From a virus (Duplodnaviria > Heunggongvirae > Uroviricota > Caudoviricetes): DNA of 18,148 bases. Below the pieces are notes generated by a model. That model was given only the letters and a program-made list of their open reading frames with translations, had not been told where the DNA came from and did not search any database. Within the stretch, counting starts at the first letter, position 1, and every line of letters starts with the position of its first letter. Of this stretch, positions 9,801-16,592 are shown one piece after another. A program made the position numbers and the translations under genes. The stretch is from IMG/VR virus record IMGVR_UViG_2609459852_000016. One strand, written 5' to 3'.

Positions 9801-11309
9801 TTATTCTTCGGACTGGTCGTCGGTGTGCTGCGGCTCCTGTCGTTTCGTTGCGGCACTGCTGCCTCCTTTATCACTGGCCGGATCGGTATCAAATACCAGA
9901 TCCAGCTTGCGGTTTTCATCAATTTCGGCCTTGCGCCGACGTTTGACATCATCCGGATTACGACCACCTGCACGTACCCAGTCTGATTCTGTCGCCGCTC
10001 CACCACGAATCTGAATTTTCCAGGCCTCAGCCTCCTTAACAGGGTCAATCCACGGCATCACCGGTCCGGAATACACCGCGGTATACAGTGAAGAACGATC
10101 AAGATCGCGGGGTAGCCTGATAACACCGGATGCCACAGCCTGTTTCAGCCAGGCACGATACATCGGGCGGGTGACGGCACCAATAAACCAGTCCTGCAGG
10201 ATCAGGTAGCCATCAGTGGATTCAACCAGCTCCTGACGCTGGGCGCTGTAAGTGCCGTTATAGTTGCGTGCCGTACTGGAAAAACTCAGACGGCTGCCCG
10301 CCGCCACGGCACGCAACTGACCATTACGAAAAGTTTCAAGGTTAGGATTGGGACGATCCGACTTCACCATTCCGATTTCTTCGCCGGGTTTCAGATCGTC
10401 GTAAATAATGCCTGGCTGAATGGTAAGCTCGCGTTCATTCTCCTTGCTGCCATTACCATCCGGTTCATAGCTCTGCCCGTCGCCTTTCCGGATGTACATC
10501 CCCAGAGCAGCGGCGATCCTTGCTGCAGTCAGCTCAGAATCTTCATACTCTTTCAGGGCACTGAGGCGGATCAGCACACCGGACAACAAAGACGTCCCGC
10601 GCATCTGGTGCAGACGGCGAACAAATTTAAGATGCAGCATTCGCTCTGCATCCACTTCTTTGGTTTCCATCTGCCGCCCGGATACGGGACGGCTTTTATA
10701 CACCAGATATTTTTCGGGACGCCCCCAGTCATCAACAAACACGCCCTGATTCAGCCTGTTGCTCTCATCACTGGTCATGGGAATAAAGTCCGGCTCGAGC
10801 GCCTCCAGCCAGAAATGAACACCGGCAGAAGGCGTCAGGCTGTTTATGCGCCCGGAAACCATCTGGGCAAACACCTCACCATCGCGCAGCCAGGTACGCA
10901 GCATCAGACGTTCCAGCATCGGACGGGTAAACTGCCCGGTGACTTCCGGACTGACAGACCATTCACTCCATCGGGTGCGTATCTCCGCTGCCAGATCACG
11001 GGCAATGGCCCCATTGCGTAATACCGGATGTGGCTCGACAATAATCCCGTTTTTCCCCACCACCCGTTCTTCCAGCTTGTCAAATACACCAATAACCAGA
11101 TCGTGGTTGTTATCAAGGTAACGGGCCTGCTCACGTAACGACACGGCCCCGTACTGGCTTAACTGGTCGGCAGTTCGGTTTTCCCGCCGGGCTTTGTGTG
11201 TCCGTGTCGTTTTTACGGCCTCATAAGCCTGGATCACCGCACGGGAACGCAGCCTTGCCGCTTTCCATCCTGGTGAAAAAACGCCAATCACATCATCAAG
11301 AATTGCCAT
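9801..11309 (-). CDS. Portal protein (lambda gpB-like)
   Basis: About 500 aa, in the position between W and the protease/capsid gene. ATG at 11309 with GAGG SD, overlapping the W stop (TGATG). Confidence 0.8.
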   Translation of the reverse strand: MAILDDVIGVFSPGWKAARLRSRAVIQAYEAVKTTRTHKARRENRTADQLSQYGAVSLREQARYLDNNHDLVIGVFDKLEERVVGKNGIIVEPHPVLRNGAIARDLAAEIRTRWSEWSVSPEVTGQFTRPMLERLMLRTWLRDGEVFAQMVSGRINSLTPSAGVHFWLEALEPDFIPMTSDESNRLNQGVFVDDWGRPEKYLVYKSRPVSGRQMETKEVDAERMLHLKFVRRLHQMRGTSLLSGVLIRLSALKEYEDSELTAARIAAALGMYIRKGDGQSYEPDGNGSKENERELTIQPGIIYDDLKPGEEIGMVKSDRPNPNLETFRNGQLRAVAAGSRLSFSSTARNYNGTYSAQRQELVESTDGYLILQDWFIGAVTRPMYRAWLKQAVASGVIRLPRDLDRSSLYTAVYSGPVMPWIDPVKEAEAWKIQIRGGAATESDWVRAGGRNPDDVKRRRKAEIDENRKLDLVFDTDPASDKGGSSAATKRQEPQHTDDQSEE

Positions 11310-11521
11310 CAGAACCTCGCCAGCCGGTACCCGGGATGCCCCCGTCGTAGTGTAATCAGAGCCGCAAGGCGGCGCTCCCACTCCTGCCGTCCCTGCCGGA
11401 TCTCAGATAAGTTTTCCATGGTCATCTGCTGACCATTAAAGGTGACGGATTTTCCGTCCAGCACCGCCATTTCAGCTTCCGTATAACGCTGAATCATGGC
11501 TTCGATATCATTCTGGTTCAT
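11309..11521 (-). CDS. Head-tail joining protein W-like
   Basis: 70 aa, between terminase large subunit and portal as in lambda. ATG at 11521 overlaps the terminase stop (ATGA), with GGAGG 6 nt upstream. Confidence 0.5.
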   Translation of the reverse strand: MNQNDIEAMIQRYTEAEMAVLDGKSVTFNGQQMTMENLSEIRQGRQEWERRLAALITLRRGHPGYRLARF

Positions 11522-13620
11522 AACCATCCTCCGGAAGTCAGCCAGGGGTTAACATCGTCAGTTACTGTTTTCTTCCGTTTTTGTTTTTTAACAGGCGTGG
11601 ATACCGGTTCCGGTGTGGGTGACGGTTCGGTACTGTCCGGGACACACTCCAGCCAGGTTTCCCGGCTCGCCCACTCCGGTGCATCCGGCCAGCGGATCTT
11701 TTCGTATCCATGCAGAATGACCAGAGCCTCGGCATACACCATCAGGTCAAAAGCTTCGTTGGCACCGCGACCCGGCTTACTCCATTTCCCGTCACTGCTC
11801 CGCTCTTCATACGTCAGTTCGTCGTAAAACCAGCTCCCCAGCCAGTCAGGGAAATGCACATAGCCGGGACCTGGCGAGTCACGCCATAACGCGTTATTCA
11901 CCCGGTCTTTCAGGGCATCCGTCTGAAGAAGCCAGAGCGGCACATCACCTGCGGCCTGCGCCCGGCGGCCCGTTCGTCCGGTGTTATCAGGGAATGTACG
12001 GCTGATCAGTTTTGCGCGCCGGATGCTGTCACCCTTAAACAGGTAAATACGTTTACCAAGGCCATCACGACGGCAACGACGCCAGAATTTATAGGCATTA
12101 TCAGTGACCCCGTCTTCACCGCCGGAGTCCACCGCCATTGCCATCAGTCGCATTTGTTGAGAAGGATCGGAGGCCAGCGGCCAGCTTTTATGAAAAACAT
12201 CCGTCAGCAGGACATCCCAGTCTTCCGGATAGCTGGCCGGATCAATTCGCTGGCTCTCCCCGTCGCTGTCACCGCGCAATGACTGCGTGATGTTGTAACG
12301 ATCAATAATCCAGCGTTCGCCACGGCTGCCATAGCCCGTTACCTGAACCACAAAACGGCGATGACGTCCCGCCTGCACATCCACTGTCGCCACAAGGAAA
12401 TTAACGCCATCCGGCACACTGCGGGAAGGAACTGGCTCTGCCCGCTGCTCAAGCAATTCACTTTTTCGTTGATCCATGCTGGCGCGGGGAAGATAAGGTA
12501 ATCCCCAGTCGGTATTGATAACCGTCTTGAGTGTCTCTTCACTTCCGGTTGTCTCGTATTCCTGTTCTGCAGTAAGCAGTTTGTAAACGAGTTGCGAGAG
12601 TGTCTGATAAGCAGCTGCCGGACCCTCCATCCAGAATGACGCAATACGTGAACGCCGGGGATCACCATAACGACTGCCATCTGCATTGATGGATTCACCA
12701 TCCCGTAACCAGACCCCACGTCCGTTCAGCTCGCGTTTTTGTTCAGGCAAAATCCGTCCTGAACAGGAAGGACACTGAATATAAGCCGCCTCACTTGCCA
12801 GCACAGGATCGGCAATATCACGGAAACCAGCAACCACATCGCCGCAGGGCTGAAAATACTCACCACAGTGTGGACAGGGCCAGTACCAGCGACGGCGATC
12901 GCCACGGTTATAGAGCGACAGGATCCCCGTGGTTGGTGGAGCCTCATGCGGTGAAGTCCGTCGCCATTTCACATCCTTCACATCCCTGCCGGGGGAACTC
13001 TCCACCAGCGTCATACCACTGGACATAAATGTGGTGGTACGTTTTGAGGCAAGAGAGAAGGCATCCCCCTCACCATCAATATCTTCCGGAAAACGGTCAT
13101 AATCCGTCAGCGCCACGCATTTATAATCTGATGAAGACATGATATTGACTGACGGCCAGCCGATTTTCAGGTAGTTGCCAGCAAGGAATGTTCTGTCATA
13201 AACGTTGTTGTCATTTTTGTTCGGACTCAGGCGACTGACCACTTCCGGGCTGACGCGAAACGTTCTGGCGAGTCGTTTTTTGGAGTGTTCGCGGGCTTTT
13301 TCCTCCGTCATCTGAATGATCAGCATATCAGCAGGATCGCAAATCACGTTGTAAATCCCCCAGCCGTCAATCAGGCCGATAGTCTTGCCGGTTCGTGCCG
13401 GGCCAACAAATATCACTGCGTCGTATTCACGCGAGGCCAGGCAGTTCATAGGCTCAATAACATACGGTGCCACCAGCGGATCCCACGGGACTGAGTTCCC
13501 TGCCCCCATAGGCACCCGCATATACTGAGCAACGGCATCAGCAACCCGCATTCGTCTCGGTGCGCGAAGGATATAACCTGAATCGGTTCGTGCTGCCTTT
13601 GCGGTTTCCTGATTCAGCAT
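11518..13620 (-). CDS. Terminase large subunit (lambda gpA-like)
   Basis: 700 aa with Walker-A-like VGPARTGKT and Cys-rich CPHCG...CPSC segment as in gpA. AGGAGG SD 5 nt upstream; start overlaps the small-subunit stop (TAATG). Confidence 0.85.
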   Translation of the reverse strand: MLNQETAKAARTDSGYILRAPRRMRVADAVAQYMRVPMGAGNSVPWDPLVAPYVIEPMNCLASREYDAVIFVGPARTGKTIGLIDGWGIYNVICDPADMLIIQMTEEKAREHSKKRLARTFRVSPEVVSRLSPNKNDNNVYDRTFLAGNYLKIGWPSVNIMSSSDYKCVALTDYDRFPEDIDGEGDAFSLASKRTTTFMSSGMTLVESSPGRDVKDVKWRRTSPHEAPPTTGILSLYNRGDRRRWYWPCPHCGEYFQPCGDVVAGFRDIADPVLASEAAYIQCPSCSGRILPEQKRELNGRGVWLRDGESINADGSRYGDPRRSRIASFWMEGPAAAYQTLSQLVYKLLTAEQEYETTGSEETLKTVINTDWGLPYLPRASMDQRKSELLEQRAEPVPSRSVPDGVNFLVATVDVQAGRHRRFVVQVTGYGSRGERWIIDRYNITQSLRGDSDGESQRIDPASYPEDWDVLLTDVFHKSWPLASDPSQQMRLMAMAVDSGGEDGVTDNAYKFWRRCRRDGLGKRIYLFKGDSIRRAKLISRTFPDNTGRTGRRAQAAGDVPLWLLQTDALKDRVNNALWRDSPGPGYVHFPDWLGSWFYDELTYEERSSDGKWSKPGRGANEAFDLMVYAEALVILHGYEKIRWPDAPEWASRETWLECVPDSTEPSPTPEPVSTPVKKQKRKKTVTDDVNPWLTSGGWL

Positions 13621-14114
13621 TACTCCTCCTGCTGTAATTCCTCCTCATCATCCGCACCTGCTTCAGTCACCCGCAGGGCTTTCTGATCGCGCAGATCATC
13701 AATAATGGACTGAACACGGCTCACAGCGGCAGGCTGCAGACCGCAGTCACGTTCAAGAATATCCGGTAATGTCTCCAGCACCTGCACGACCGCTTTTGCC
13801 CAGATGGCAAACTCCCGTCTGACATCACTGGCCGGAATGAGTTGTGCCGTTTCCTGTTCGAACTTAAGACGCTCACGTTCAGACTGATACCAGGCTTTGC
13901 GCTCATGCGCGTCCATTTCGCCTTCTGCAACCGGCGGTGGTAATGCCAGAAATGCCGACACAATATCAACCACCCGATAAAGCTTGAGGTTGCTTTCATG
14001 CCCCCCTGCAACGGGTAGATTTTGCAGCCTTGCCGCAGCAGTCTGGCGATGTACACCTGACAATGCCGCCAGTTGACTGATATTCAGCGTCAGATTTTTT
14101 AACTCTCGATCCAT
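13620..14114 (-). CDS. Terminase small subunit (lambda Nu1-like)
   Basis: N-terminal HTH-like LNISQLAALSGVHRQTAAARLQ. The start lies 186 nt from the putative cohesive end (lambda Nu1 starts at about nt 191). GGAG SD. Confidence 0.75.
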   Translation of the reverse strand: MDRELKNLTLNISQLAALSGVHRQTAAARLQNLPVAGGHESNLKLYRVVDIVSAFLALPPPVAEGEMDAHERKAWYQSERERLKFEQETAQLIPASDVRREFAIWAKAVVQVLETLPDILERDCGLQPAAVSRVQSIIDDLRDQKALRVTEAGADDEEELQQEE

Positions 14115-14205
14115 ACCCGCTCCAGAATGTTTTAAACATGCATCTTGCGAACAACTTTAGGCAAACGGTGTTAGTGATGAACAAAAAACAATCAGAATCG
14201 ACACC

Positions 14206-14246
14206 ATAAAAATAAAACCACTGTAATATCAATCAATTACAGTGGT
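14206..14246 (-). other. Perfect 11-bp-stem hairpin plus U-tract in the cosB position (terminator-like or terminase/IHF site)
   Basis: Plus-strand accactgtaat-atcaatca-attacagtggt (14217..14246). On the minus strand it is followed by UUUAUUUUUAU (14206..14216). Confidence 0.4.
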
Positions 14247-14283
14247 GGTGATGACGAATAAAATTTCAAAAACTAGCCTTTTT

Positions 14284-14300
14284 CCGCGACGCTCCCGCCC
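14284..14300 (-). other. Candidate cos site (cosN-like cohesive-end sequence)
   Basis: Minus strand reads GGGCGGGAGCGT-CGCGG, against lambda left end GGGCGGCGACCT-CGCGG (from memory), followed by a GAAATTTTA...TTCGTCAT motif similar to the lambda cosB region. Confidence 0.5.
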
Positions 14301-14666
14301 CGTGGCAGGGACCCCCACTGGGAGGACCCGACAGCCTGACAACCGTGACGAGCATCTGAAACAGAGCTTTACATAATGGCATGGGGATAATTCAGAAGGA
14401 CATCACAGCATGCCCACACAAATTAGTGTGAGTGTCCTGTTTCTTACTACGCGCAGGACTGACGAGCATGAGGGGAAAATACGCGAACCGAAATGCCTTA
14501 TCTTCAGAAATGCAGCCGGCATCCGAACTGGACGATATTGTAAATTCACCTAAATACGAGGCATTGCTGTAGTTGAATTGCAGTACTGTATTAGCCTTAC
14601 AGTGACAGAATACGATATTGACTCTGTCACTTGTGAAATGGTCAGAATGGTTAGCAGTTATGGTGA

Positions 14667-14873
14667 TCAGTCAACCACCAGGGAATAATCCTTCGTATTC
14701 TTATCGTGCTTTACTAACGCGGCCTCAATTGCCCTGAATGCTTCCAGAGATACTTGATGTTCTATACATGCAATTACAACATCCGGGTAACCCATCGAAA
14801 TGGTGCTATTAAGCATAGTTTTTACACGAACCTGCTCCTGGGAGGGGGCATCAGTGTATTGATCTTTATGCAT
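14667..14873 (-). CDS. Hypothetical small protein (68 aa), cargo gene of unknown function
   Basis: ATG at 14873 with GGAG 9 nt upstream; balanced amino-acid composition; no motif recognised. Confidence 0.5.
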
Positions 14874-15809: not shown

Positions 15810-16016
15810 CTTCATTTTCACTTTCTTAAATCTAACGACAGATGGCTAACATTTAAGTATTGTGAAATATTATCAAATGTAATCATCATTGATTTACAAA
15901 AGATACATTTTGCCCCGAAAGGATTTCTGTCAGAAACATCAAAAGATGATGTTCTATACTGAGAACCATGGCAACACGGGCATCTAAAGTGAATATGGTT
16001 TGTAATATTTTCTACC

Positions 16017-16229
16017 TCAAAGTGCCACTACATGAACAGCTGCAGGGCCTTTAGGTCCGTTCTCAATACCAAATTCGACTTCCTGATTCTCAGTTAACGT
16101 TTTGAAATCGTTGCTCTGAATAGCTGAGAAATGCACAAACACATCTTTGCTACCATCTTTCGGCGTGATGAAACCAAAACCTTTTTCAGGGTTAAACCAT
16201 TTCACTAAACCAGTCATTTTGTTAGACAT
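16017..16229 (-). CDS. cspI: CspA-family cold-shock protein (CspI-like)
   Basis: [38 protein letters not shown]...: cold-shock domain with RNP motifs, near-identical to E. coli CspI as I recall it. AAGGTAATA SD-like leader. Confidence 0.9.
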
Positions 16230-16592
16230 CATTATTACCTTTTGAAGAAGTTAGCCCTTGGGCAGAATGGTCCGAAAAAAAATATCAGAGAGAAAAACCA
16301 ACAAGGAAATCTCAAGAGGTACAAATAATAAAATTATAACAATGACTGCTTCAGATAATTTTGTAACAAACCAGAACACCATTAACGCATGATTAACCAA
16401 CCATAGCAAGGATTACTTTTGTAAAGAAAAACACACGAATGAAACAATAGCTTTATTTATTAATAAAACGTGTCATTCTGTCTAATGACCTTTTATCTTA
16501 CCCTTAAGATTTCAAGGATTTTGACTCATGGAAGAGTCCTTTTTATTTAAATTTCACATTCAGCGCTAAAAATAATCCGATTTAATATTAAT
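16230..16592 (-). promoter_or_regulatory. AT-rich promoter and long 5-prime leader region upstream of cspI
   Basis: About 360 bp without ORFs between the Rz stop and cspI start. Contains a TATAAT on the minus strand (plus-strand 16333..16338). Cold-shock genes typically have long structured leaders. Exact promoter not resolved. Confidence 0.3.

Follow-up and report, generated by a model that had tools for sequence, protein, structure and literature searches.

A lambda-type cosQ heptamer and a mosaic spacer, probably non-coding, between ybcW and cosN in a lambdoid prophage with a DUF1441-family small terminase

The closest described relatives of the cos site considered here are the lambda-like systems of the Feiss laboratory (lambda, 21, N15 and gifsy-1). 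Their 5′ cohesive end is 12 nt long, conserved in its left half and variable in the right; CG borders the nicks, a 7-bp cosQ lies upstream, and a cosB with an IHF consensus precedes the small terminase gene (TerS). Across lambda-like phages, the variable half of the cohesive end covers positions 7-12 (PMC4669245), and the 7-bp cosQ is highly conserved and needed for packaging termination (PMC4669245). In lambda, the only phage for which the function of cosQ is known, it enables the moving terminase to recognise the downstream cosN and nick it, which ends packaging (PMC4669245).

The DNA on the other side of cosQ is also occupied in the best-known members of the group. Between ybcW and cos, lambda, DLP12 and Qin carry a DUF3950 gene of 64-77 codons, named ylcI in DLP12 and ynfO in Qin, that runs antisense to the late operon. 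The lambda copy (complement of 48112-48303, between p79 and cos) is a 64-codon ORF identical to E. coli YlcI, a DUF3950 protein of ribbon-helix-helix-like type, and is not annotated in J02459.

We analysed a window of 18,148 nt from a virus of the Caudoviricetes (IMGVR_UViG_2609459852_000016), and within it the interval 14301-14666 (366 nt). The window comes from a lambdoid prophage and covers its late region, with the genes read on the minus strand. From the high-coordinate end, the order on this strand is lysis genes, accessory genes of the cspI, gnsB and ybcW types, the gap under study, cosN, cosB, TerS and the large terminase gene (TerL). The lysis end contains a lysozyme gene and a DUF2514 Rz-like gene (minus strand). 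Between the lysis cassette and ybcW lie a cold-shock gene (cspI-like) with a cspA-type leader, and ynfN- and gnsB-like genes, all on the minus strand. The leader, a cspA-type thermoregulator (15971-16387, minus strand; Rfam RF01766, 110 bits), precedes the cspI-like gene, and the pair belongs to the accessory genes found between the lysis cassette and cos.

The final gene ahead of cos is a ybcW-like gene (14667..14873, minus strand) encoding 68 aa, a homolog of lambda p79 with 80% amino-acid identity; it matches phrog_657 (E = 4.6e-48) and is annotated as YbcW in relatives. Beyond cos are a small terminase of the DUF1441 family (13620..14114, minus strand; Pfam DUF1441, E = 1.4e-40), a gpA-type large terminase (11518-13620, minus strand; GpA_ATPase and GpA_nuclease) and a lambda-family portal (9801-11381, minus strand). 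The interval therefore has the same position and orientation, between ybcW/p79 and cosN, as the right end of lambda (47945-48502).

No ORF of at least 60 codons was found inside 14301-14666 on either strand, in agreement with the sequence-only reading, which had described the segment as ORF-poor. For comparison, 66 genome loci representing many genera were used together with 160 viral contigs. The gap proved to be a mosaic of four pieces (14301-14330, 14331-14489, 14490-14521 and 14522-14666), and breakpoints among the 160 viral contigs lie at about 14489, 14330 and 14267. We regard the interval, with good confidence, as the non-coding tail of a lambda-like prophage right arm, running from the ybcW stop codon (14667) to cosN. 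As to its content, cosQ is in all likelihood the sole part with an assignable mechanism, and the remainder a spacer built by recombination. The region is of an ordinary, already understood kind.

The cohesive-end 12-mer of cosN, GGGCGGGAGCGT (14289..14300, minus strand), lies just outside the interval and is flanked by CG on each side. Aligned to its lambda counterpart GGGCGGCGACCT, it differs only at positions 7, 8, 9 and 11, all of them in the reportedly variable half (7-12) of lambda-like cohesive ends. Upstream of it, away from the cosB and terminase side, is the heptamer GGGTCCT (14329..14323, minus strand), which is identical to lambda cosQ (48473-48479) and occurs as a single copy in the whole 18-kb window. 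Its distance to the nick is 22 nt, against 23 in lambda, and the order of elements is cosQ-cosN-cosB-TerS. By analogy with lambda, GGGTCCT would act here as cosQ, the packaging-termination subsite.

Prophages with a DUF1441 TerS from Klebsiella, Kosakonia, Phytobacter, Enterobacter, Ewingella, Serratia and further genera have GGGTCCT at the corresponding position too. It is in place at most of the 21 genome loci with a locatable cosN, a minority having GGTACTC. The cos-proximal segment made up of cosQ and the cosQ-cosN spacer (14301..14330, minus strand) is the sole part of the interval conserved across genera. Cross-genus blastn matches begin at query positions 568-573, corresponding to window positions 14333-14328, so that conservation ends about 30 nt upstream of the nick; recombination breakpoints among 80 viral contigs also cluster at about 14330. 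Packaging signals resembling cosQ had been suggested from the sequence, and a true cosQ does lie within the interval; it was not located in that reading, though, and none of the repeats listed there belongs to it. The sequence around those repeats shows no conservation outside Escherichia.

The cosB region (14115..14288, minus strand) lies between cosN and the small terminase gene and is conserved with relatives of several genera. It contains an exact IHF consensus, TATCAATCAATTA, at 14227-14239 on the plus strand, which may be the counterpart of the lambda I1 site. Also in cosB is a perfect inverted repeat of 11 bp (14246-14217, minus strand); with the T-rich run that comes after it, it was called as terminator-like in the direction of the late transcript; the IHF consensus occupies the loop and one arm of this hairpin, and the hairpin is not conserved in the O157-type cosB. 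The features shared with the Feiss-laboratory systems are the 12-nt cohesive end with its conserved left half, the CG at the nicks, the upstream 7-bp cosQ and the IHF consensus before TerS. The TerS family here is a different one (DUF1441; Nu1 in lambda), and the packaging function of this cos is predicted from its sequence.

A sharp recombination breakpoint was observed at 14267, within cosB and about 22 nt past cosN. Among 80 viral contigs with an identical ybcW, 41 match the window as far as cosQ-cosN and carry another cosB and another DUF1441 TerS allele beyond it (HannyBb type). This indicates that cosQ-cosN and cosB-TerS are exchanged as separate modules.

If packaging proceeds as in lambda, the interval would be the last DNA to enter the capsid: the terminase motor would come from the ybcW side, reach cosQ and then nick cosN. 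A late transcript, Q-antiterminated as in lambda, would traverse the region and cross cos into the terminase genes. In lambda, CRISPRi on p79 scores it as essential (PMC10695390), whereas p79 is non-essential according to literature cited in that paper, whose authors attribute similar discrepancies elsewhere in lambda to polarity (PMC10695390). Our own reading is that the p79 result may likewise reflect polarity on late genes beyond cos, and we take it as a sign of transcription through the homologous region.

The part of the interval next to ybcW (14522..14666, minus strand) is homologous to lambda 47945-48090 and to the ybcW-ylcI intergenic region of DLP12, with 81-85% identity to lambda and DLP12. 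It is the probable 3′ UTR of ybcW. Its divergence from lambda (27/144, 18.8%) equals the divergence at the third codon positions of ybcW (13/69), so the segment as a whole appears to be roughly neutral. Lambda homology ends near 14522. The following 14490..14521, not assigned to a strand, is a recombination junction between the lambda-homologous part and the block that adjoins cosQ. It is common to PhiR30_1-type phages, where it follows a plus-strand 64-codon CDS that is a positional counterpart of ylcI in lambda.

Within the ybcW flank is a hairpin or palindrome (14601..14631, minus strand) with a 9-bp stem, AGTGACAGA/TCTGTCACT (14601-14609 and 14623-14631), and a 13-nt loop, exactly as described from the sequence. 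Its stem, GTGACAGA...TCTGTCAC in the stretch shared with lambda at 81-85% identity, does not vary in any allele, that of lambda among them. Five versions of the loop occur (GTCAATATCGTAT, GTCAATATCGCAT, GTCAATGTCGCAT, GTCAGTATCGCAT and GCCAACACGCAG), one of them with an indel. In 1000 dinucleotide-preserving shuffles of the 366 nt, an inverted repeat of at least 9 bp with a loop of 3-20 nt was reached in 13, which places this repeat above chance; it is the sole feature of the earlier list that beats the shuffles. The stem may be the one feature of the interval under selection, going by its conservation among the aligned alleles.

We considered whether the hairpin is a functional RNA element of the ybcW or late mRNA, such as a 3′ stabiliser, an RNase III or other processing site, or a site resolving the convergent ybcW and ylcI transcripts in lambda-type phages. 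This idea concerns only 14601-14631 and is compatible with a spacer in the rest of the interval. An invariant stem with a loop that varies across five variants including lambda is what it would produce, and besides exceeding the shuffles, the hairpin lies 36 nt beyond the ybcW stop codon. Since ybcW-ylcI is listed in K-12 as a convergent overlapping transcript pair (PMC12288877), a role in the stability or processing of 3′ ends is plausible. There are, however, no compensatory changes to support pairing, a DNA palindrome bound by a protein would fit equally well, and the hairpin has no U/T tract on either strand and was not called as a terminator. Moreover, 18 bases left unchanged at a divergence of 18.8% have a probability of about 2%, to be read with the several such windows that were implicitly examined. 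We therefore hold the RNA element to be possible, on the doubtful side. In either form, an RNA 3′ hairpin or a small protein-binding palindrome, the element appears to be tied to ybcW, and in lambda-type phages its counterpart would also be tied to the convergent ybcW/ylcI transcripts. In the viral-contig scan the palindrome occurs essentially only downstream of ybcW; a wider family was rejected, the other viral-contig matches being unrelated.

The two other repeats described from the sequence fared less well. The 10-nt direct repeat TGACGAGCAT is present, but at 14346-14355 and 14460-14469, one base lower than had been given. The exact 10-mer is specific to the allele of the window, the O157-type copies being ATGCTCGCCA and ACGTTCGTCA, which are 7/10 alike, and a direct repeat of at least 10 nt was reached in 52/1000 shuffles, a borderline value. 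The 8-nt palindrome CAGTACTG was confirmed at 14581-14588; at least one such palindrome was reached in 738/1000 shuffles, as expected by chance, and relatives have CAGCAATG, CAGAACTA, CAGAGCTG or TAAAACTG in its place. Conservation of the repeats in relatives thus holds for the stem of the inverted repeat, but neither the exact direct repeat nor the palindrome is kept. A hammerhead ribozyme, considered from CTGACGAG...GAAA in the repeats, was rejected: no hammerhead or other Rfam family was matched at E up to 10.

Adjoining cosQ is a non-coding block of about 160 bp (14331..14489, not assigned to a strand), for which no homologs were found outside Escherichia-like records. HannyBb and mEp460_ev081 have an identical block at the same place next to cosQ-cosN, and in the mEp460-type and O157:H7 Sp prophages (Sakai Sp3 903124-903797; mEp460, Ayreon, HannyBb) the block also lies beside cosQ-cosN, the second allele being about 78% identical. 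Overall, the two alleles, the window type and the O157/mEp460 type, are about 78-85% identical and differ by frame-breaking 1-nt indels, by the length of a poly-G tract and by the number of 8-nt repeats. Two tandem copies of the 8-nt unit, GGTTGTCA GGCTGTC (14330..14345, minus strand), abut cosQ in the window, and among four near-identical relatives the unit (GGCTGTCA; GGYTGTCA) is present in 2 to 4 tandem copies. Steps of 8 nt in copy number are incompatible with coding. Beyond the outer, ybcW-side edge of the block (about 14489), at least three different sequences are found.

Two hairpins lie within the block, GTCCTG/CAGGAC (14434-14459) and CACAC/GTGTG (14415-14430). In the second allele, the variable-length poly-G tract sits in the loop of the GTCCTG/CAGGAC hairpin. 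RNAalifold over 38 distinct block alleles returned two invariant 6-bp stems, GTCCTG/CAGGAC, with a loop of varying length, and CTCACA/TGTGGG. Covariation across homologous prophages, which had been proposed as a check on the segment, was not convincing over these 38 alleles, with only isolated double changes in helices of 2-3 bp.

The block could be a cis-acting DNA element of this cos type, in which terminase or a host protein binds or bends the DNA at an array of loosely defined sites (GGYTGTCA units, ATGCTCGTCA-like repeats), slowing or positioning the motor before cosQ or aiding the recognition of cos in concatemers. The block does adjoin cosQ directly, and it is kept with cosQ-cosN in the 41 of the 80 contigs with identical ybcW that exchange cosB and terminase at 14267. 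It also contains short direct repeats, one of them in tandem beside cosQ, and the second allele still shows both ATGCTCGTCA-like copies. On the other hand, the block is wholly replaced, with unrelated sequence immediately upstream of cosQ, in about one quarter of the contigs with a 99% identical TerS, and prophages of other genera with the same TerS family carry a Fur-box-like palindrome at this site instead. The copy number and sequence of the repeats drift freely, and nothing upstream of lambda cosQ is described as needed for packaging (PMC4669245). Such an element is in our judgement unlikely.

Some observations nevertheless sit uneasily with a spacer. Phages seldom retain 340 bp without function, the block is present in most of the relatives sampled, its two alleles are still about 80% identical and share two invariant 6-bp stems, and the invariant stem and variable loop at 14601-14631 suggest selection. 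Retention at about 80% identity with invariant stems leaves room for a function tolerant of indels: the DNA might set a spacing, bend, or form a loose array for binding. We give little probability to the block being an uncharacterised cis module that replaces the Fur box and ylcI, or else giving rise to an unpredicted antisense RNA that crosses the late operon's end. As a cis module it could act as an array, bound by protein or bending the DNA, through which packaging termination is adjusted. The mosaic spacer remains our preferred reading of the block.

What the block replaces can be seen in lambda, DLP12 and Qin, where the same slot holds a Fur box and the antisense ylcI/ynfO. A search by tblastn with YlcI/YnfO found nothing in the window or in any DUF1441-type locus, and no ORF of the region matched DUF3950 in Pfam, a profile that YlcI itself matches at 1.9e-20; a degenerate ylcI/ynfO gene in the gap was excluded on these two results. 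A Fur-box-like palindrome, AATGATAATCATTATC, was found 3-6 nt upstream of cosQ in other phages, matching the 19-bp Fur consensus at 14-17/19 positions (16/19 in lambda, Qin and DLP12; 14-17/19 in other genera). In the window region the best match is 11/19, the level of shuffled sequence. The window thus differs from lambda, DLP12 and Qin in having neither ylcI/ynfO nor a Fur box: where lambda has the antisense YlcI ORF and the Fur-box-like palindrome by cosQ, the window has an unrelated 160-bp non-coding block. The flanks compare differently, with the ybcW-side stem in common and GGGTCCT identical, while the small terminases and cohesive-end positions 7, 8, 9 and 11 differ.

The Fur-box-like site is at 48449-48467 in lambda and precedes nohA/nohD in Qin and DLP12; in DUF1441-terminase prophages (Klebsiella, Kosakonia, Phytobacter, Enterobacter, Serratia and further genera) it is found some 25-45 nt from cosN on the upstream side. 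A published gel shift shows that Fur binds upstream of nohA, and nohB has a strong predicted site ahead of it (PMC2189734). We found no discussion of the constant adjacency of Fur box and cosQ across genera in the literature examined.

The sequence-only reading had put forward a small protein antisense to the late operon, and YlcI/YnfO of DLP12, Qin and lambda is exactly such an arrangement: a small antisense gene in the ybcW-cos slot. The idea therefore has a real parallel in this slot, but what fills it in this phage is different and non-coding. The candidate was a 47-codon ORF (14410..14553, plus strand) starting with ATG, and both the ORF and the AGAAGGA at 14394-14400, 9 nt before the ATG, are present as described. 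Its position and orientation match those of ylcI, the AGAAGGA resembles a Shine-Dalgarno sequence, and the first 27-28 codons are open in most alleles, aided by an in-frame 3-nt insertion. A plus-strand small protein or antisense RNA that functionally replaces the ylcI/ynfO module would account for these points.

The ORF is not conserved in frame, however, being truncated or startless in diverged alleles. It is of full length only in alleles at least 98% identical, has 27 codons in alleles of 91-95% identity and 28 codons in the second (O157-type) allele, and stops after 27-28 codons in all alleles below about 96% identity. In the O157-type allele the ATG is replaced by GTG, GTA, CGA or GCG, and many alleles of this type have GTA, CGA or GCG, which stand against a start codon there. 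Most differences between the two alleles are non-synonymous, variation in poly-G length shifts the frame in several relatives, and the mosaic junction at 14489 falls inside the ORF. Neither Pfam nor PHROG gave a match to it, no promoter was predicted for it, and an ATG ORF of at least 47 codons was reached in 601/1000 shuffles (60%), as expected by chance. We judge that it is not a gene, and consider a small protein or antisense RNA from the plus strand very improbable.

Two further short ORFs of the gap were examined and set aside. A plus-strand 46-codon ORF (14432-14572), which matches phrog_4035, has an in-frame stop (CAG to TAG) in one allele and a 1-nt indel near its end, and its changes are mostly non-synonymous. 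A minus-strand 48-codon ORF (14403-14549) is annotated in HannyBb and was judged an ORF-calling artefact.

A small RNA had been named as another candidate product of the interval, and none of the signals examined speaks for one. No Rfam family was matched in the interval even at E up to 10, no promoter or intrinsic terminator was predicted in 14301-14666 on either strand, and fold z-scores of -1.07 and -1.05 for the two strands are no more stable than shuffles; covariation was equally unconvincing. Published surveys list no sRNA at homologous places: there is no Hfq-CRAC peak (EcOnc set) in the homologous gap of Sakai Sp3 (903423-903792), and no new sRNA is listed at the homologous position (PP4) in the EPEC table for E2348/69, the Hfq-CRAC and RIL-seq surveys covering only Hfq-bound RNAs in uninduced cells. 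Known prophage RNAs were also compared and rejected as counterparts: the AsxR/AgvB anti-sRNAs are located 3′ of PR′, the PasA-D sRNAs have other coordinates in E2348/69, and the EcOnc sRNAs are at other loci, with no peak in the Sakai Sp3 gap.

Deposited ORFs span cosN in Ayreon (127-411), mEp460 (134-382) and HannyBb (659-814), the coordinates being those of the extracted loci. Both the Ayreon ORF, annotated as a 'putative late gene regulator', and the mEp460 ORF cross cosN and were judged ORF-calling artefacts. The PHROG matches of the Ayreon ORF (phrog_127, Q-like, and phrog_141, TerS) fall on translated cosB-cosN-cosQ DNA, which suggests that those profiles contain over-extended ORF calls. 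Short ORFs are often annotated across this gap, and in some cases span cosN; they are probably spurious, and annotators should treat them with caution.

For the widespread mEp460/O157-type cos with a DUF1441 terminase, cosQ has now been placed, which helps to define the ends of these prophage genomes. The main result in itself matters little. Of greater use may be a second observation, namely that sequences are exchanged upstream of cosQ, in a slot that holds a Fur box and ylcI in some phages and unrelated non-coding DNA in others.
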